DNA of 13,134 nt. Origin: a virus. Lineage: Duplodnaviria > Heunggongvirae > Uroviricota > Caudoviricetes. The position numbers and the translations under genes are program-made. The stretch lies in IMG/VR virus record IMGVR_UViG_2681813271_000010, one strand, 5' to 3'. The notes beneath the pieces were generated by a model. That model searched no databases. It was given only the letters and a program-made list of their open reading frames with translations, and was not told the origin of the DNA. This document shows positions 1 through 7,253 of this stretch, in pieces (the first letter of the stretch is position 1; every line of letters begins with the position of its first letter).

Positions 1-405
1 TAGCTGGTCACATGCGCCTTTGATATCGCCCTGGTTTATTTTGCGAAGAAGCGTCGATGTTCTGAAATTGCCAGCGCCCACGTTGTAAACGAACGAGTAA
101 AGAGCGCCGCGCGTTGTTTCCGGTATATCGACTTTGATGTACGGGTTAATTTGTCTGGCGACAGTGGCAAGGTCTTTATTCAGGAGGGCTTTGCATTCTG
201 CTTCGGTATACGTTTTACCGAGCATGATGTCTTTTCCGGTGTGTCCGTGACATACAGTCCATACACCAATGATATCTTTGTATGGTATGTAGCTGACACC
301 TTCCAGACCATCGTTACCACCTGGGCCAGTGATTAACACAGATGCTATAGCAACAGCCCCGCCACCAATAGCAACTGCAACAGCCTTGCGTAATGATGGC
401 GACAT
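1..405 (-). CDS. R: SAR-type endolysin (phage 21 R-like lysozyme); C-terminal end lies outside the window
   Basis: Minus-strand ATG at 405-403 overlaps the holin stop (TAATG). Translation [57 protein letters not shown]... shows a Gly/Ala-rich hydrophobic N-terminus followed by E-x8-D-x5-T spacing typical of T4-lysozyme-fold endolysins. Frame is open to position 1. Confidence 0.85.
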
Positions 406-620
406 TATTCACCTCTCGCAGCCTTACGCTTGTCTTCTCTTATTTTGAAATACAGATTTGTCAGATAAGTCAGAAGCCCCAGAAGCAGACTTCCCAGCAC
501 ACCAATCGCAGCCCACTGTGATGGACTGACCTGATCCAACCACTGCAAAAACCAGTAGCCGGCACTGCCGGCGGAGGTGCCGTAGGCAATGCCTGTTGAT
601 ATTTTTTCCATCTGATACAT
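405..620 (-). CDS. S: class II holin / pinholin (phage 21 S-like), dual-start motif
   Basis: 71-aa frame [71 protein letters not shown]: two hydrophobic segments and a charged C-terminus. Met1 and Met4 fit the holin/antiholin dual-start pattern. A G-rich tract precedes the ATG on the coding strand. The listed ORF 405-749 is only a read-through of the N-run. Confidence 0.85.
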
Positions 621-680
621 ATCCCGCCCCCCCCCCNNNNNNNNNNNNNNNNNNNNNNNNNNCAGACCTGTGCTATCGGA

Positions 681-714
681 AAGAAAAAAGGCCATCAGCA
701 AAACTCTGATGGCC
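681..714 (-). terminator. intrinsic terminator-like hairpin upstream of holin (tR'-like position)
   Basis: Stem GGCCATCAG (690-698) / CTGATGGCC (706-714) with a 7-nt loop; on the minus strand it is followed by a T-rich run (complement of A-run 681-689). Confidence 0.45.
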
Positions 715-1328
715 TGAATCACCTTTACCAATATTGTATGAAAAAACACGCACGACTAATTGACAATAATTTTCATTTCCATTAAAAAAGATCGCGTAGC
801 ATTCTTAATTCATGAGGAACTTTACCCGCCAGCAATCTGAGTAGCGAAAGCTGTTCATCCCCAATGTTTTTGCTGGCGGGTCCTTTTTTCTACGGTCCTC
901 CTCCCCGGAGGGGGGCATTTCATTATTTTTCTAATCGTTACTGGTGAGAAGGCGGAAGAAAAAGCCAGTTCTTCGCCCCTAAATAACAGCATGATTCCAG
1001 TCCATGCAAAATCTGATTTCCAGCTCACACATACCGAGCACTGTACAAAAAACCGCCAGCCAAGGCAGTTAAGAGTGTGTTCCCGGGGTTTGCTTAGAAT
1101 ATTTTGTAAGTTGTCCGAAGAGATATTTACAACACCAGAATGATGAATCATCAGTCCCCTGCCAGAGGTTCACTACGTAACCTGACCGACAATGCACCAT
1201 TCTGGTGCTGAAAAAAGAGCACTGGAACTGCAACAAAACAACATCACAGAACAGGAGATGGTAAGGAGTCAGACATTCCCACACAATATTGTGTCAGTGC
1301 AAATAACAACCTTCGTCTCAAATCTCGC

Positions 1329-1403
<75 letters not shown>

Positions 1404-1406
1404 ATA

Positions 1407-1482
<76 letters not shown>

Positions 1483-1484
1483 GC

Positions 1485-1561
1485 TGGCCCACCACCGAGG
1501 ACTCGAACCTCGCACCGTCAACTTAGAAGGTTGATGCTCTATCCGGATGAGCTAGTGGTGG
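1485..1561 (-). tRNA. tRNA-Arg (anticodon UCU, reads AGA)
   Basis: Minus-strand CCACCACTAGCTCATCCGGATAGAGCATCAACCTTCTAAGTTGACGGTGCGAGGTTCGAGTCCTCGGTGGTGGGCCA: acceptor CCACCAC/GTGGTGG (unusual C1-G72), D-stem GCTC/GAGC, anticodon stem TCAAC/GTTGA, loop CTTCTAA, CCA encoded. Confidence 0.8.
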
Positions 1562-1562
1562 T

Positions 1563-1639
1563 TGGTGGCCCTTGCTGGACTTGAACCAGCGACCTGGCGA
1601 TTATGAGTCGCTCGCTCTGACCAACTGAGCTAAAGGGCC
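1563..1639 (-). tRNA. tRNA with CAU anticodon, Ile2 (lysidine-type, ileX/ileZ-like) rather than Met
   Basis: Minus-strand GGCCCTTTAGCTCAGTTGGTCAGAGCGAGCGACTCATAATCGCCAGGTCGCTGGTTCAAGTCCAGCAAGGGCCACCA: acceptor with C4 and C5, anticodon loop CTCATAA, T-stem GCTGG/CCAGC. Closely resembles the E. coli ileX-type tRNA as I recall it. Confidence 0.8.
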
Positions 1640-1727
1640 GGAGGCAGAATAATAACCATATGTCATCACATCTGCAAACTCATCTGACCACCAGCACGTT
1701 TAACGTCCTGTGCCGTTTTTCAGGTAT

Positions 1728-1750
1728 AAAAAAACCCGCTCATCGGCGGG
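1728..1750 (-). terminator. intrinsic terminator (minus strand) between Q-like gene and tRNA cluster
   Basis: Stem CCCGC (1735-1739) / GCGGG (1746-1750) with 6-nt loop; A7 on plus (1728-1734) gives a U7 tail on the minus-strand transcript. Confidence 0.5.
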
Positions 1751-1846
1751 TTTAAGCTGTGTGGCGTAGTAACCACTCTTAACAGGATATTCAACTTTTT
1801 ACGATCNNNNNNNNNNNNNNNNNNNNNNNNNNNNNNNTTCAGGTAT

Positions 1847-1868
1847 AAAAAAACCCGCATAAAGCGGG
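1847..1868 (-). terminator. second intrinsic terminator (minus strand), near-copy of the 1728-1750 element
   Basis: Stem CCCGC (1854-1858) / GCGGG (1864-1868); A7 on plus (1847-1853) gives a U7 tail on minus. Shares the upstream TTCAGGTAT-A7-CCCGC context with the first terminator; a 31-N run (1807-1837) lies between them. Confidence 0.5.
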
Positions 1869-1947
1869 CTCTTTCAAATGTCCATGTCTGCTATTCGCCT
1901 CGCGGTACAGCTTTGCGAAGCGTACAAGAATTGAAGCAGTTTTTACG

Positions 1948-2502
1948 TCAAAAAGCAATAACTTTTTTCTCTATACCAAAAGCCATAACCATTGGTTTGT
2001 ACAAAATAAATTCTGCCACCTTTAGCCAATGCTCAATGCGTCTTTCACAGGTTCTTAAACTCCATTTCGGGTGTGCATCATTCAGCAGTTCAGCCATTTT
2101 GCGTTTGGTCATCCCCCGCCCCTCATACCGTTGCCGAAGGACGCTAATCAATCCTGGATGCTCTGCCAGCACCTCACTTATGACCCGATCAATACATAAC
2201 GCCTCTGCATCAGTACAATGCGCCAGCCAGCTCTTTTGCTTACCGTTAATCATATCCCGCAAAAAAGCCTCAAGTTCAGACTTGTTCAGACCTGCTTTTT
2301 TCATCCTCCGGAGCGCCTCGTTAATTGCCGTTTTTGTCAGCTTTTTAGAGGTCAACATCAGGTTAAACATATTCCCCGTCTTACCGCCACCAATATACGA
2401 CCAGCGCCCCCACATACGTAGTTTTCCCTGAATCCAGACACTTTCCAGCGTGGTGAGACGAAGGTGTTCTCCGCTTTTTCCTGTATTCGTTGGGTAAATC
2501 AT
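1948..2502 (-). CDS. putative late-gene antiterminator (Q-like, 184 aa); function assigned mainly by position
   Basis: ATG at 2502-2500 preceded by AAGGAGGG Shine-Dalgarno; ATGA overlap with the upstream gene in the intact copy at 5789-5792. Sits immediately upstream of two terminators, the tRNA cluster and the lysis cassette, which is the Q position in lambdoid phages. Family not recognised with certainty. Confidence 0.55.
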   Translation of the reverse strand: MIYPTNTGKSGEHLRLTTLESVWIQGKLRMWGRWSYIGGGKTGNMFNLMLTSKKLTKTAINEALRRMKKAGLNKSELEAFLRDMINGKQKSWLAHCTDAEALCIDRVISEVLAEHPGLISVLRQRYEGRGMTKRKMAELLNDAHPKWSLRTCERRIEHWLKVAEFILYKPMVMAFGIEKKVIAF

Positions 2503-2547
2503 AAATATCCCTCCTTTCTCCAGATTTCTTGTGTGCGAAAAACACCT
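2267..2547. repeat. 281-bp segment identical to 5557-5837, ending at an 11-N run
   Basis: Direct comparison of 2267-2547 with 5557-5837 shows an identical sequence (5' portion of the Q-like gene plus the last codons of the DUF1364-like gene). Copy 1 ends at the N-run 2548-2558; copy 2 begins right after the N-run 5546-5556. Confidence 0.85.
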
Positions 2548-2558
2548 NNNNNNNNNNN

Positions 2559-3008
2559 CGTGAACTCAACCTGACCGTGTTTATCGAAGTGGCTCAGTAA
2601 TGCGCATCCATCATTTTCGATAGATGTGTTTTGTGCCGCTGGTGGCTGTTTCTGGTTGAAATAACAGTCTTCCAGTTTTTCGAACACTTCCCACGCCTGA
2701 TCGGTTTCGAGCATTTTGGCGTGACGGGCTGCGCCACGTTCTGTCCAGAGGATGAGGGAGCGAACGTTACGGGCAATTTTCACAGAAACTCTTAAAGAGT
2801 TTTCGTTCTTCAACTCTCGTAACGCATCACCTTCTATCAGGAAAAAATGTTTACCTTCTATAAACCGTTCTTTGTTTCGATTGAAATTGTTTGTCAAACG
2901 CTGGCGCTCTGTTCCGTACAAATCAGCCAGCAGCTCTGTTGTCATGACAGGAAGATGGTTATGCGTAAGTGACGGGAGTTTTTCAATAGACGTGCGATTC
3001 ATAGACAT
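2559..3008 (-). CDS. ORF6N/antirepressor-like phage protein, 3' end truncated at N-run
   Basis: ATG at 3008-3006 with AAAGGA 6 nt upstream. Translation MSMNRTSIEKLPSLTHNHLPVMTTELLADLYGTERQRLTNNFNRNKERFIEGKHFFLIEGDALRELK... resembles ORF6N-domain antirepressor-type proteins (recalled, not searched). The frame runs into the N-run at 2548-2558, so the C-terminus is not visible. Confidence 0.5.
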
Positions 3009-3145
3009 GTCCTTTCGAATATTTTGATTTACCCCTTTTGAGAGGGTGACCGGGCGCTCAAAACCGTCGAAAGTCGGCGGGCGTATTTCCATTGCTGGTA
3101 TTGTATTAGCCGCACACCCGGTCATAAACCAAGAATTCTGGACAC

Positions 3146-3173
3146 AAAAAAACCACATGGCTATCGGGTGTGG
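3146..3173 (-). terminator. intrinsic terminator downstream of the Q (82/21-type) promoter region, tR'-like
   Basis: Minus-strand CCACACCCGATAGCCATGTGG followed by T7 (complement of A-run at 3146-3152). Confidence 0.5.
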
Positions 3174-3208
3174 ATACCGCTTTCGAGGTGTTTTGAGCAC
3201 CGCGGGGA

Positions 3209-3314
3209 AATGTAAACTGCAAACCTGAAACTGTCAACACCGTCAGGTTCCAATCCCGACGCCAGATTTTGCTGGCGCGTGAGGAATATAGCCCCGGACA
3301 ATGTGTCTGGTCAA
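3209..3314 (-). promoter_or_regulatory. two tandem sigma70-like promoters immediately downstream of Q (pR'-like)
   Basis: Minus strand: TTGACC (3314-3309), 18-bp spacer, TATATT (3290-3285); and TTGACA (3238-3233), 18-bp spacer, TACATT (3214-3209). Both fire toward the terminator at 3146-3173. Confidence 0.4.
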
Positions 3315-3318
3315 GCAC

Positions 3319-3911
3319 CTACATAATTCGTTCTACGTATCTGTCCATCTCCAGCCGGATATCAAGCATCATCAACATGCCATCAATAACCCNNNNNNNN
3401 NNNNNNNNNNNNNNNNNNNNNNNNNNNNNNNNNNNNNNNNNNNNNNNNNNNNNNNNNNNNNNNNNNNNNNNNNNNNNNNNNNNNNNNNNNNNNNNNNNNN
3501 NNNNNNNNNNNNNNNNNNNNNNNNNNNNNNNNNNNNNNNNNNNNNNNNNNNNNNNNNNNNNNNNNNNNNNNNNNNNNNNNNNNNNNNNNNNNNNNNNNNN
3601 NNNNNNNNNNNNNNNNNNNTGCCAATACAGGTATCCGAACACCCATGTTTCCGTGCCAGACTCATAAAAGTCATTCCACCTACGTAATAATCCACCAGCA
3701 AATCGTGCAAATCCTGATTTTTCTTGTTCAACCGGGCCATACAGCCACAAATTATCATTGCATCATCATCAGAACACTGAGGGCGTGATTTCACTTTCGA
3801 CGGAATTAACCCTTTAAAACCAGCAGCGATCGACGCCCAGGATACATCTTCATGAGTGTTTGCAGCCCAAGCCCCCCACCGTTCCATAACCTGCTGAATA
3901 TCACGCGCCAT
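3319..3911 (-). CDS. Q: antitermination protein Q (phage 82/21/933W type), interrupted by a 227-N run
   Basis: ATG at 3911-3909 overlapping the rusA-fragment stop (ATGGCGCGTGA). N-terminal [97 protein letters not shown]; after the N-run (3393-3619), in another frame, ...[23 protein letters not shown] then stop at 3321-3319. Both halves match the Q82/Q21 family as I recall it. Confidence 0.7.
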
Positions 3912-4122
3912 CGTTATCACCTGTGATTTCATAAATCTTCACGCCCAGTCGCCCACCAGGAACGAGCTGACCGCGCACAATATTGATTTCATCAAACTGC
4001 TCGTCGTCTATGAGTAGTCCGGCATGCGTCAGCGCATCCAGTGGTGCTTTCAGGATATTGTCCAGGTCACGACGGCGCTTATCCGGTGGCTCTGCAATAA
4101 TCTTTATCGCCAGCCTTCCGGA
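3901..4122 (-). pseudogene. rusA: rusA (Holliday junction resolvase) 3' fragment, cut by IS4
   Basis: Minus-strand frame from the IS4 left end reads [73 protein letters not shown], matching the C-terminal half of RusA (DRRRRDLDN motif). There is no start codon and the N-terminal half is absent. Confidence 0.75.
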
Positions 4123-4123
4123 C

Positions 4124-5549
4124 TAATGCCGATCAGTTAAGGATCAGTTGACCGATCCAGTGGCTGTGTAAGAATCCGGAAACGCTCACTTGTTTCCGGA
4201 TTTTTTTATGCACATTGGACAGGCTCTTGATCTGGTATCCCGTTACGATTCTCTGCGTAACCCACTGACTTCTCTGGGGGATTACCTCGACCCCGAACTC
4301 ATCTCTCGTTGCCTTGCCGAATCAGGTACTGTAACGCTACGCAAGCGCCGTCTTCCCCTCGAAATGATGGTCTGGTGTATTGTTGGCATGGCGCTTGAGC
4401 GTAAAGAACCTCTTCACCAGATTGTGAATCGCCTGGACATCATGCTGCCGGGCAATCGCCCCTTCGTTGCCCCCAGTGCCGTTATTCAGGCCCGCCAGCG
4501 CCTGGGAAGTGAGGCTGTCCGCCGCGTGTTCACGAAAACAGCGCAGCTCTGGCATAACGCCACGCCGCATCCGCACTGGTGCGGCCTGACCCTGCTGGCC
4601 ATCGATGGTGTGTTCTGGCGCACACCGGATACACCAGAGAACGATGCAGCCTTCCCCCGCCAGACACATGCCGGGAACCCGGCGCTCTACCCGCAGGTCA
4701 AAATGGTCTGCCAGATGGAACTGACCAGCCATCTGCTGACGGCTGCAGCCTTCGGCACGATGAAGAACAGCGAAAATGAGCTTGCTGAGCAACTTATAGA
4801 ACAAACCGGCGATAACACTCTGACGTTAATGGATAAAGGTTATTACTCACTGGGACTGTTAAATGCCTGGAGCCTGGCGGGAGAACACCGCCACTGGATG
4901 ATACCTCTCAGAAAGGGAGCGCAATATGAAGAGCTCAGAAAACTGGGTAAAGGCGATCATCTGGTGAAGCTGAAAACCAGCCCGCAGGCACGAAAAAAGT
5001 GGCCGGGACTGGGAAATGAAGTGACAGCCCGCCTGCTGACCGTGACGCGCAAAGGAAAAGTCTGCCATCTGCTGACGTCGATGACGGACGCCATGCGCTT
5101 CCCCGGAGGAGAAATGGCGGATCTGTACAGTCATCGCTGGGAAATCGAACTGGGATACAGGGAGATAAAACAGACGATGCAACTGAGCAGGCTGACGCTG
5201 AGAAGTAAAAAGCCGGAGCTTGTGGAGCAAGAGCTGTGGGGTGTCTTACTGGCTTATAATCTGGTGAGATATCAGATGATTAAAATGGCGGAACATCTGA
5301 AAGGTTACTGGCCGAATCAACTGAGTTTCTCAGAATCATGCGGAATGGTGATGAGAATGCTGATGACATTGCAGGGCGCTTCACCGGGACGTATACCGGA
5401 GCTGATGCGCGATCTTGCAAGTATGGGACAACTTGTGAAATTACCGACGAGAAGGGAAAGGGCCTTCCCGAGAGTGGTAAAGGAGAGGCCCTGGAAATAC
5501 CCCACAGCCCCGAAAAAGAGCCAGTCAGTTGCTTAACTGACTGGCNNNN
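4124..5549 (+). mobile_element. IS4 insertion sequence (about 1426 bp); last 4 bp of the right end hidden by N-run
   Basis: Left end TAATGCCGATCAGTTAAGG at 4124; right end ...CTTAACTGACTGGC at 5545 is its imperfect inverse, with the expected final ATTA falling under N 5546-5549. The length equals the IS4 size I recall. No target-site duplication is visible. Confidence 0.85.
4208..5536 (+). CDS. insG: IS4 transposase
   Basis: Translation [80 protein letters not shown]... (442 aa) is the IS4 transposase as I recall it. The ORF track begins 18 nt earlier at 4190 (MFPDFF), which is an alternative start. Confidence 0.9.
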
Positions 5550-5556
5550 NNNNNNN

Positions 5557-5792
5557 GCCTCAAGTTCAGACTTGTTCAGACCTGCTTTTTTCATCCTCCG
5601 GAGCGCCTCGTTAATTGCCGTTTTTGTCAGCTTTTTAGAGGTCAACATCAGGTTAAACATATTCCCCGTCTTACCGCCACCAATATACGACCAGCGCCCC
5701 CACATACGTAGTTTTCCCTGAATCCAGACACTTTCCAGCGTGGTGAGACGAAGGTGTTCTCCGCTTTTTCCTGTATTCGTTGGGTAAATCAT
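5557..5792 (-). pseudogene. 5' fragment of the Q-like gene (second copy), abutting the IS4 right end
   Basis: ATG at 5792-5790; encodes MIYPTNTGKSGEHLRL...LNKSELE, identical to the first 78 codons of 1948-2502, then runs into N-run/IS4. Lies inside the 281-bp repeat 5557-5837. Confidence 0.6.
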
Positions 5793-6079
5793 AAATATCC
5801 CTCCTTTCTCCAGATTTCTTGTGTGCGAAAAACACCTTCTGCATGCATCAGGCGTAATTCTTCTTTGGTGTAATCGCTGGTTTTTACCCGCCCGTCGATT
5901 AAATCGTGGCACGAGCTACAGGCAATCGCTGCCTGCATATCGTGTGGCTTTATCGCTGTTCCGCACGTTCCCGCCAGTCGGTAATGCGCCAGCACAGACG
6001 TTTCCGGATCGTGATTGCAGTAGCCAGGAATTCTGACGGTGCACATCTGCCCCCGCGCCGCTTTACGTAAATCCACCAT
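5789..6079 (-). CDS. Cys-rich nin-region phage protein (DUF1364-like, recalled)
   Basis: ATG at 6079-6077 overlaps the upstream stop (TAATG); stop overlaps the Q-like start (ATGA). MVDLRKAARGQMCTVRIPGYCNHDPETSVLAHYRLAGTCGTAIKPHDMQAAIACSSCHDLIDGRVKTSDYTKEELRLMHAEGVFRTQEIWRKEGYL has several Cys pairs. Confidence 0.65.
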   Translation of the reverse strand: MVDLRKAARGQMCTVRIPGYCNHDPETSVLAHYRLAGTCGTAIKPHDMQAAIACSSCHDLIDGRVKTSDYTKEELRLMHAEGVFRTQEIWRKEGYL

Positions 6080-6678
6080 TACGCAAACTCCAGCAGCTGC
6101 GCGGCCACATTTTCGACTTGTTCCGGAGAGGAAAATTTACGGAACAGAATCCAGTTCCACAGCACATTCAGAACAGATTTATAAACCTGCTGAAACTCGG
6201 TTTCGTCCATATTCGCAAACGCGATAGATTTCGCCCGACACCCACGGCTACCGTCCGGATAAAAATGCTCGGTGTAAAATCCGGCCTGAATGGCTACCCA
6301 CTCGCGGAAAGCCTCAAACGACTTTAGCAATGCCGTATCACTGGTTCTGCGTGTCGCAACTGTATTCAGATATTGCTCTGCGGCTTCGCTCAGAGCTGGC
6401 GTATGTTCCCGGCCTACTGATTCACACAGGTAATCAACGAAACCGGACACCAGTTTTCGTTCGCGAGGCGTGATCGCCCCACCGACCGGAGTCCAGTAAT
6501 CGAAACCCAGTTGCAGGAGTTTGAAAAAACGCTTGTGGAATGCGTAGTTACACACACGCTTAAAGTCTGCGTGTATCCACTCACCTATTTTGATTTGATG
6601 CAGAAAATCGCAACTCTCCGGCGTCGCCGGGAGAAGTAATCCGGAAGAGGTTTGTTTGACCAGTTGTATATGTGCCAT
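6079..6678 (-). CDS. nin-region phage protein (DUF1367-like, recalled), 199 aa
   Basis: ATG at 6678-6676 with GGAG 8 nt upstream (MAHIQLVKQTSSG...). The ORF-track start at 6720 is a TTG, so 6678 is preferred. Translationally coupled to the downstream gene. Confidence 0.6.
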   Translation of the reverse strand: MAHIQLVKQTSSGLLLPATPESCDFLHQIKIGEWIHADFKRVCNYAFHKRFFKLLQLGFDYWTPVGGAITPRERKLVSGFVDYLCESVGREHTPALSEAAEQYLNTVATRRTSDTALLKSFEAFREWVAIQAGFYTEHFYPDGSRGCRAKSIAFANMDETEFQQVYKSVLNVLWNWILFRKFSSPEQVENVAAQLLEFA

Positions 6679-6716
6679 CGGCTTTCTCCGGTGGCACGGT
6701 GTTACACAGCAGGAGT

Positions 6717-7004
6717 TCAATCCTGCTCAAGATTGTAGATGAGTTTATTCTTCAGCAAAAGCAGAAAACCAGCCTTAAAACCAATCTCTTTCAAAACCCG
6801 TAATGATGTGACAAATTCGTCCTCACGCAAAATAAAACCGTCCGTCAGAAGTCCATTACAAAAATAAAATAACACAGCACCGCTCTTCCTTTGTTGAGAT
6901 TGCAAACATCTAATGCGGCAATGGCTGACAATCGCTCCATTCTCAACGCGCACAGCATAGAGGCCATTTTCACTAAAAATTTCACGCAATTCTTCGATTT
7001 TCAT
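6717..7004 (-). CDS. hypothetical small phage protein (95 aa)
   Basis: ATG at 7004-7002 with GGAAGGA 7 nt upstream; MKIEELREIFSENGLYAVRVENGAIVSHCRIRC.... First gene of an apparent four-gene unit with the next three genes downstream. Confidence 0.55.
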   Translation of the reverse strand: MKIEELREIFSENGLYAVRVENGAIVSHCRIRCLQSQQRKSGAVLFYFCNGLLTDGFILREDEFVTSLRVLKEIGFKAGFLLLLKNKLIYNLEQD

Positions 7005-7085
7005 CTTCAGAATCCTTCCAGATAAATAGCTCTCCCCTGTTCGGGGTCCATCCCTCTTCTCCCTGCGCGCTACTTAAGTGAGTCG

Positions 7086-7113
7086 ATTCTATCTGCGAAG
7101 GTGCGCGAATCAA
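7086..7113 (-). promoter_or_regulatory. candidate sigma70 promoter for the 7004-5789 gene set
   Basis: Minus strand TTGATT (7113-7108), 16-bp spacer, TAGAAT (7091-7086), about 80 nt upstream of the ATG at 7004. Confidence 0.35.
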
Positions 7114-7133
7114 ATTCACCGGAAATAAACAAC

Positions 7134-7176
7134 AAAAAACCCGCCGAAACGCTGAGAGATCACAGCGATGGGCGGG
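7134..7176 (-). terminator. intrinsic terminator at the 3' end of the hok mRNA
   Basis: Stem CCCGCC (7140-7145) / GGCGGG (7171-7176) with a long loop; on the minus strand followed by a U-run (complement of A-run 7134-7139). Confidence 0.5.
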
Positions 7177-7253
7177 TTAAGTGCGGGTGCGTTGAGGATG
7201 CCTGACACATCAGAGGTGGGCGGGGATGGGATCAGCTCCCCGCCCGGTCACTC

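Follow-up and report, generated by a model that had tools for sequence, protein, structure and literature searches.

An exact 281-bp repeat pair around a Q-rusA-IS4 block in a Shigella sonnei-type prophage scaffold very probably reflects misplaced contigs

Two widely distributed and unexceptional lambdoid late-control modules occur in prophages of E. coli and Shigella. One has the order RusA-Q-ORF6N-tRNA-lysis, as in the retrieved loci L003, L004 and L017-L024, and the other the order DUF1367-YbcO-DUF1133-tRNA-lysis, as in L001, L008, L013 and L025. IS elements number in the hundreds in Shigella genomes, which also contain many phage regions and are easily misassembled (PMC6836418; PMC5481147); the same elements drive rearrangement there (PMC6836418). 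The IS4 family, whose members encode a DDE transposase, is characterized by a short target-site duplication. When short-read scaffolding misjoins contigs at a repeat fork, the duplicated sequence sits right at the contig ends, N runs of minimum length appear where the estimated distance is close to zero or negative, gaps receive small contigs derived from paralogous loci, and assembly breaks fall at IS ends and at the divergence point of two loci that share a repeat. All these traits recur in the window analysed here, a 13,134-nt stretch of a Caudoviricetes record (IMGVR_UViG_2681813271_000010). It departs from such misjoins in one respect, an overlap of 281 bp that is not k-mer-sized like the 21 nt at the p2/p3 fork in the same scaffold. 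With regard to the late-control modules, the only oddity is the apparent nesting of one in the other, which we regard as artefactual.

Nine N runs (26, 31, 11, 227, 11, 146, 11, 1 and 25 N) divide the window into ten pieces (p1 to p10), a total that the original prediction did not mention. These are contigs derived from two or more related lambdoid prophage remnants of a Shigella sonnei-type genome. Positions 2267-2547 and 5557-5837 form an exact repeat (281 bp, 0 mismatches) by direct comparison, and self-BLAST returned the same pair; identity extends 0 bases beyond either side, and a repeat of this kind cannot have arisen by chance. Copy 1 is the right-hand end of p3 and runs into the 11-N run at 2548-2558, while copy 2 is the left-hand end of p6 and follows the 11-N run at 5546-5556. 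Both boundaries facing the enclosed block are contig ends (2547 before the N at 2548, and 5557 after the N at 5556), exactly as had been described for a repeat pair bordered by 11-N runs. Self-BLAST revealed further duplications across N runs, between 8572-8716 and 8749-8893 (94.5%) and between 9130-9429 and 9521-9820 (90.3%).

The repeat-bearing pieces p6 (5557-8425) and p3 (1838-2547) make up a module that we call path A, located beside modABC and ordered DUF1367 - YbcO/DUF1364 - DUF1133. On the minus strand, p3 carries the last 45 bp of YbcO/DUF1364 and a complete DUF1133 (Q-like) gene (2502..1948; Pfam DUF1133, E=2e-107) that also matches Phage_antitermQ weakly (PF06530; 29.4 bits against a cut-off of 26). 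Encoded on the same strand of p6 are the 5' part of DUF1133, YbcO/DUF1364 (6079..5789), DUF1367 (6678..6079), a Rem-like gene, hok/sok and QueH, called from Pfam, an Rfam-type identification of sok and the annotation of relatives. Pfam thus agrees with the flanks as predicted. Piece p3 is 100% identical (710/710) to L008, L013, L001 and L025, and p6 is 100% identical (2869/2869) to L008 and L013, which belong to the chromosome records UGZB01000001.1 (at ~3.68 Mb) and CP060117.1, respectively. On L013, p3 maps to 10952-10243 and p6 to 10523-7655, the two overlapping on one single-copy stretch of 281 bp (10523-10243) to which both repeat copies correspond. A direct join without the block (1838-2547 fused to 5838-6800, 1,673 bp) was found ungapped at 1673/1673 in L008 and L013, which upholds the claim that DUF1367, DUF1364 and the Q-like gene would be contiguous if the block were removed. 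The same arrangement occurs in L001, L002 and L025, and DUF1133 directly follows YbcO in 10/10 places found when the YbcO protein of the window served as query. Since the DUF1133/YbcO stretch exists in two to three exact copies per chromosome, the read-depth test proposed with the original prediction would be confounded. We also compared path A with its paralogues in L005, L006, L009, L010 and L014, considering the 281 bp as a maximal exact repeat between DUF1133/YbcO paralogues, at whose limits an assembly should break. This was refuted: identity runs from 1838 through 6219, the first position to differ is 6220, and the isolated differences among paralogues (2112, 2227 and 2426) fail to fit the repeat boundaries.

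The enclosed pieces and those at the start of the window follow another order, path B, namely DnaB - rusA::IS4 - Q - ORF6N - tRNAs - holin - lysozyme. In the closed chromosome CP180015.1 (L022), p5, 21 bp, p4, 142 bp, p2, 2 bp and p1 are collinear, without p3. Piece p5 (3620-5545) comprises the 5' part of Q (3911..3620, minus strand), a 3' fragment of rusA (4123..3904, minus strand) and IS4 (4124-5545, transposase on the plus strand); including the rusA'/IS4 junction, it is 99.84% identical to L022. The Q antiterminator matches PF06530 (3911..3621; 143 bits against a cut-off of 26, E=5e-42) and the rusA fragment PF05866 in the window translation. Inside Q, a run of 227 N (3393-3619) hides only 21 bp, which correspond to L015 2068-2088 and are also present in L018 and L022. 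Piece p4 (2559-3392, minus strand) is 100% identical to L018 and L017 and holds the 3' end of Q (stop at ~3319), promoter-like sites detected in a promoter scan, an sRNA-Xcc1-family element (3123..3040, minus strand; Rfam) and an ORF6N-domain gene (3002..2559, minus strand; Pfam). The latter, the truncated antirepressor-like gene of the original prediction, is cut by the contig end, with 148 of 187 aa visible, and its product is 100% identical to the Shigella protein P0121. No record was found on protein look-up for a 70-aa ORF at 3318..3106. Pfam searches of the window translations therefore support the predicted content of the block (Q, a rusA fragment, IS4 and the truncated gene). The proposed Q-pR'-tR' module stands as regards Q, and a simple terminator scan of 2559-4130 found no tR'-like site.

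Downstream of ORF6N, path B continues into p2 (663-1806, minus strand), which contains four tRNA genes (1329-1639), a segment shared with path A and a 67-bp tail specific to path B (1740-1806). Over its full length p2 is 99.91% identical to L022, L018 and L017; in an S. sonnei contig (L015), the sequence downstream of ORF6N equals window 1806..1663 at 100%, and the 67-mer 1740-1806 is found in path-B loci only. The 26-N gap that follows (637-662) stands for a true distance of 2-3 bp: window positions 632 and 663 correspond to L022 9989 and 9986, and the distance in L008 is 3 nt. Piece p1 (1-636, minus strand) encodes a class II holin (620..405) and the N-terminal part of a lysozyme (405..1), and has a C10 run (627-636) at its end. 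Its positions 1-632 are 99.68% identical to the path-B loci L017, L018 and L022, and 98.8-99.1% to the path-A loci L008 and L013; the exact holin protein, used as a query, retrieved the ORF6N-Q-RusA prophage in chromosomes. The tRNA and lysis pieces (1-1806) had been assigned to the DUF1133 prophage. They belong instead with the prophage of the enclosed block, to which they are 99.7-99.9% identical, the 67-bp tail included. The DUF1133-tRNA-lysis order expected in that assignment is present in relatives such as FDAARGOS_944, and tRNAs and lysis genes come after DUF1133 in L001 and L025. In the S. sonnei-type loci L008 and L013, the shared segment of path A is followed by an IS, past the equivalent of window position 1569.

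The two paths meet just upstream of the tRNA cluster, where they share 171 bp at 100% (1569-1739), and up to 412 bp (1328-1739) in other copies. The first 21 nt of p3 equal positions 1719-1739 of p2, after which the sequences differ (T vs A), marking the fork; the 31-N run at 1807-1837 stands between p2 and p3, which are not neighbours. Both prophages are present in UGZB01000001.1, at ~3.68 Mb (L008) and ~0.96 Mb (L018), that is, ~2.7 Mb apart and in opposite orientation. In that record rusA is intact; rusA::IS4 comes from CP180015.1. The 11-N run at 2548-2558 falsely links p3 of path A to p4 of path B, and the one at 5546-5556 falsely links the IS4 end of path B to the middle of DUF1133 of path A. 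The sides of these two junctions are adjacent in 0/5,426 complete E. coli genomes. Among the fetched loci, the direct-join 60-mer was detected in 10, the path-B 67-mer in 7, and both in 0. In path-B chromosomes, window position 2559 runs via 142 bp into position 1806, and across seven path-B loci the neighbours of the block are the rusA 5' part/DnaB and the tRNA segment, never DUF1133 or YbcO. It follows from the collinearity of path B in CP180015.1 that the true neighbour of the block is position 1806, not the repeat. The enclosed contigs thus have their neighbourhood elsewhere, as p5-p4-p2-p1 in L022 and with the 1806..1663 tail in L015.

The block does hold a real insertion typical of the IS4 family. 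The element is visible over 1,422 bp, and its transposase matches PF13006 and PF01609 (Pfam). In the closed chromosome with the same insertion, IS4 ends in ...CTGGCATTA, so its last 4 bp (ATTA) are hidden in the N run, as had been proposed. There, the IS4 end and ATTA are followed by a 13-bp duplication, CAGCCTTCCGGAC, and then by the 5' part of rusA, not by DUF1133; in CP180015.1 the element has simply inserted into rusA, duplicating 13 bp of target. A scan of complete E. coli genomes found the rusA'/IS4 junction in none of them. The 281-bp repeat differs from a target duplication in its length, in its distance of 1.6 kb from the left end of IS4 and in the gap between it and the right end; as a candidate IS4 duplication it was ruled out by the true 13-bp duplication inside rusA. 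The join of IS4 to DUF1133 occurs in no closed genome examined.

Other parts of the scaffold are faulty as well. A true gap of 37 bp is occupied by 157 N together with a paralogous piece of 145 bp, and the two sides of the third 11-N run are paralogous pieces that overlap. We considered p8 as part of a separate third prophage, which was partly refuted: 8728-9149 (422 bp) is genuine path A, matching the interval between QueH and DUF977 in L026 and L029, and only the p8 tail (9150-9519) and p7 are paralogous.

Taken together, the repeats are very probably the unmerged, overlapping ends of two path-A contigs, between which contigs of the distant path-B prophage were misplaced during assembly. This reading builds on the observed overlap, on chromosome-scale records in which each path is collinear, and on what truly flanks IS4 and ORF6N. 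The scaffold would come from a draft assembly of a Shigella sonnei-type strain in which contigs of two separate, related lambdoid remnants were written in series, and p6 and p3, overlapping by 281 bp, would never have been merged. Both paths enter the shared segment upstream of the tRNA cluster; we infer that a read-pair scaffolder would therefore have seen both linked to one downstream contig and lined up p6, p5, p4, p3 and p2, with 11 N as its minimum gap where the estimated distance was about zero or negative. Judging from the other strains, the arrangement in the source strain would resemble that in the chromosomes of its relatives. Closed-chromosome collinearity and the direct join hence support the first of the two options originally offered, contigs of two prophages scaffolded with unresolved overlaps. 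Some observations count against an artefact. If the strain has several IS4 copies, it is unusual for p5 to hold the whole element joined to unique sequence; real IS- and prophage-mediated rearrangements do take place in Shigella genomes; and the exact 281-bp overlap is without explanation, the other contig overlap in the scaffold being only 21 nt.

The second option originally offered was that IS4 had mediated an insertion into the Q-like gene. In its broader form, the ORF6N'-Q-rusA'-IS4 segment of prophage B would have entered DUF1133 of prophage A through IS4 or through Campbell-type circle recombination. The event would have left 281 bp directly duplicated, with the N runs merely concealing two junctions. 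Such an event would account for an exact repeat that flanks the block and for a block end that coincides with an IS4 end, and it would suit both the IS-driven rearrangement of Shigella genomes (PMC6836418) and an overlap length that no assembler property explains. Yet in L022 IS4 has simply inserted into rusA, where its 13-bp duplication and the rest of rusA flank it, and a 281-bp duplication is no footprint of transposition. At its other end, the block runs from ORF6N into position 1806 rather than into the repeat; the p2 tail (1740-1806) joins this ORF6N-downstream sequence to the tRNA segment in the same assembly, and a real insertion therefore needs a second copy of the region. The inner repeat boundaries are both exactly contig ends, both joins of block and repeat are N runs without continuous sequence (which also speaks against Campbell-type or other recombinational insertion), the direct join is 100% identical in two chromosome records, and the junction adjacencies are absent from all 5,426 complete genomes. 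We therefore consider this insertion highly improbable.

A milder alternative is a real recombinant of A and B, formed through the shared 171-412-bp segment or through IS copies; the scaffold order would then be partly genuine, for example in placing path-B tRNAs and lysis genes after DUF1133, and the placement of the block would still be an artefact. The true 21-nt overlap that joins p3 and p2 at the fork is compatible with this, as are L001 and L025, with tRNAs and lysis genes after DUF1133, and the IS after the shared segment on path A in L008 and L013, so strains differ here. Nothing requires such a recombinant, however: the B-specific tail of p2 means that a B-type joint at least exists, and the evidence fits simple repeat collapse equally well. 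A recombinant is very improbable. Lastly, the N runs could be masks or ambiguous calls in contiguous sequence whose written order is true, as their irregular lengths, one being a single N, might hint. Masks would keep length, yet the 227-N run covers 21 bp, the 26-N run 2-3 bp and the 25-N run 14 bp, and the sequences flanking several runs overlap or are paralogous. This idea, rejected on the disagreement between N counts and true distances, is scarcely conceivable.

The nested block between the repeats is very probably not a real biological feature. The scaffold is unfit for inferring prophage structure, the truncations of ORF6N, DUF1133 and Q, or an IS4-mediated rearrangement, and the N-run lengths in the record are uninformative about true distances. 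If, against very long odds, the prophages of the source strain had truly recombined, with the Q, ORF6N' and rusA'::IS4 fragment inside DUF1133 between 281-bp direct repeats, the result would be one prophage remnant with two antiterminator modules, produced by an IS4-associated or Campbell-type event. The sole real event in the block is the insertion of IS4 in rusA of an S. sonnei prophage, which is known from a closed chromosome and unremarkable.

The exact 281-bp repeat of the original prediction (2267-2547 and 5557-5837) was recovered by self-BLAST as well, with identity extending 0 bases on either side. Copy 1 abuts an 11-N run (2548-2558), and copy 2 begins directly after another (5546-5556). 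These belong to a set of nine N runs, the others lying at 637-662, 1807-1837, 3393-3619, 8426-8571, 8717-8727, 9520 and 12931-12955, which divide the window into ten contig pieces: p1 (1-636), p2 (663-1806), p3 (1838-2547), p4 (2559-3392), p5 (3620-5545), p6 (5557-8425), p7 (8572-8716), p8 (8728-9519), p9 (9521-12930) and p10 (12956-13134). The gene identities proposed for this region were checked by Pfam on the window's own translations, and they hold. The block between the two repeat copies encodes Q (PF06530, 3911..3621), a RusA C-terminal fragment (4122..3904) and the IS4 transposase (4208-5536), and it is flanked by DUF1367 (6678..6079), YbcO/DUF1364 (6079..5789) and the Q-like DUF1133 (2502..1948, with a weak Phage_antitermQ match). 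The block also encodes an ORF6N-domain protein (3002..2559); an Rfam match to the sRNA-Xcc1 family (3040-3123, minus strand; 77.4 bits vs a gathering score of 53) sits 38 bp upstream of its start codon (3002).

In the closest complete E. coli-labelled genomes, FDAARGOS_944 (locus L001) and FDAARGOS_943, DUF1367, DUF1364 and an intact DUF1133 are directly adjacent. In L001, p3 aligns to 4690-5399 and p6 to 5119-7987, so that the two overlap by 281 bp. A look-up of the window's exact YbcO protein found DUF1133 directly after YbcO in all ten chromosomal places. The flanks had been predicted to be contiguous without the block, and this was borne out: a direct-join construct (window 1838-2547 plus 5838-6800) is 1673/1673 identical, ungapped, in UGZB01000001.1 (locus L008) and CP060117.1 (locus L013), and in both of them p3 (710/710) and p6 (2869/2869) again share those 281 bp. 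The DUF1367-YbcO-DUF1133 module, part of a prophage that we call path A, is found two or three times in a chromosome (two loci each were compared in UGZB01000001.1 and CP060117.1), and its copies share more than 1 kb without a difference (window 1838-2547 plus 5838-6219), which makes it a built-in trap for short-read assembly. As DUF1133/YbcO is present in two to three exact copies per chromosome, read depth over 2267-2547 would be raised under either model. The 281 bp are not, as was expected in this analysis, the maximal exact repeat that the paralogues share, the edges of paralogue identity differing from those of the repeat. A hok/sok type I toxin-antitoxin locus lies inside the path-A prophage at 7254-7579 (minus strand), identified by an Rfam sok match of 117 bits and by hokD annotated in relatives.

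The block itself has other neighbours. ORF6N, over the 148 aa that the window shows, is 100% identical to a protein that is named as Shigella/S. sonnei and occurs on at least 1,000 contigs. One of the loci compared, a 3.4-kb S. sonnei contig (L015), encodes DnaB, an 85-aa ORF, intact RusA, Q and ORF6N, and its alignment to the window places only 21 bp behind the 227-N run. Because downstream of ORF6N this contig runs on at 100% identity into window 1806..1663, the end of p2, the real neighbour of the block is p2, 142 bp away (L015 3087-3228, between ORF6N 2559 and window 1806), and not the repeat. A look-up of the exact holin retrieved this second prophage (path B) whole in chromosomes, with IS, DnaB, RusA, Q, ORF6N, tRNAs, holin, lysozyme and terminase; none of the path-A copies has the holin allele of the window. 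In CP180015.1 (locus L022), p5 (6414-4489), p4 (6582-6436, 7241-6737 and 8700-8497), p2 (9986-8843) and p1 (10620-9989) are collinear without p3, and the true gaps between them are 21, 142 and 2 bp, respectively. UGZB01000001.1 carries both prophages in opposite orientations, path B at ~0.96 Mb and path A at ~3.68 Mb.

IS content of the path-B prophage differs between strains. IS4 interrupts rusA in the window and in L022, while rusA is intact in L015 and in five other chromosomes. An additional IS lies inside ORF6N in L022 (7242-8496, equivalent to window ~2751-2761), with an ORF6N fragment of 114 aa, and is missing from the window. Between Q and ORF6N, the window (3246-3255) lacks 154 bp present in L015 (2236-2389), L022 and two further path-B loci; these bases may truly be deleted or may have been lost by collapse during assembly. 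A direct repeat of 10-11 bp, GGATTGGAAC(C), lies at the edges of the absent stretch, which includes a terminator-like hairpin with a T run after it. A cluster of four tRNAs (Gly, Thr, Arg, Met/Ile) lies upstream of the lysis genes, and its CAT-anticodon member (1563-1639, minus strand) is tRNA-Met according to ARAGORN vs tRNA-Ile in the RefSeq annotation of its FDAARGOS_944 and FDAARGOS_943 counterpart.

The two paths meet at a fork. The first 21 nt of p3 equal 1719-1739 of p2, after which p2 and p3 diverge. Path B matches p2 over its full length, and path A (L008/L013) is 100% identical to it over 1569-1739. The last 67 nt of p2 were found in path-B loci only and a 60-mer across the direct join in path-A loci only; none of the fetched loci contains both. 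Together with the shared 1569-1739, these markers indicate that both prophages run into a common segment. The order p6, p5, p4, p3, p2 in the scaffold probably arose because the scaffolder wrote the two branches one after the other.

Similar faults recur elsewhere. The N runs do not reflect real distances: the 227-N run stands for 21 bp, the 26-N run for 2-3 bp and the 25-N run for 14 bp. Since the 26-N gap is so short, the contig probably broke at the C10 homopolymer that ends p1 just upstream of the holin gene (627-662). The region 8426-9520 is a second mis-scaffolded zone: p6 and p8 are truly 37 bp apart, and the scaffold puts 146 N, p7 and 11 N there. p7 is a 94.5% paralogue of 8749-8893 in p8, and the p8 tail (9150-9519) is an 88-93% (~90%) paralogue of the p9 start, while 8728-9149 is the 137-aa gene that truly lies between QueH and DUF977. 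All three 11-N runs, including that between p7 and p8, separate overlapping pieces or non-neighbours, which suggests that the scaffolder used 11 N as its minimum gap. For one S. sonnei genome, 535 IS elements and 15 phage regions were predicted (PMC6836418), and assembler benchmarks record many misassemblies for Shigella genomes (PMC5481147).

Two explanations had been offered for the block: contigs of two lambdoid prophages scaffolded together, or an IS4-mediated insertion into the Q-like gene. After the N run following IS4, the window has DUF1133 sequence, unlike L022, where IS4 is flanked on both sides by a 13-bp duplication, CAGCCTTCCGGAC, and its right end, completed there by ATTA, leads through this duplication into the rusA 5' part; the insertion reading is, therefore, not supported. 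Among 5,426 complete E. coli genomes, a collection outside which most Shigella genomes fall, none has the two sides of either 11-N junction (2547/2559 and 5545/5557) adjacent, and none contains the rusA'/IS4 junction. The record in which the two prophages were seen together, UGZB01000001.1, has an intact rusA, and the chromosome with the IS4-interrupted rusA is CP180015.1. With the exact direct join in L008 and L013, and the block collinear with p2 and p1 in L022, the structures in these other strains make it very probable that the source strain carries two prophages that were mis-scaffolded into one. The repeat-bracketed block is not a real genomic feature.
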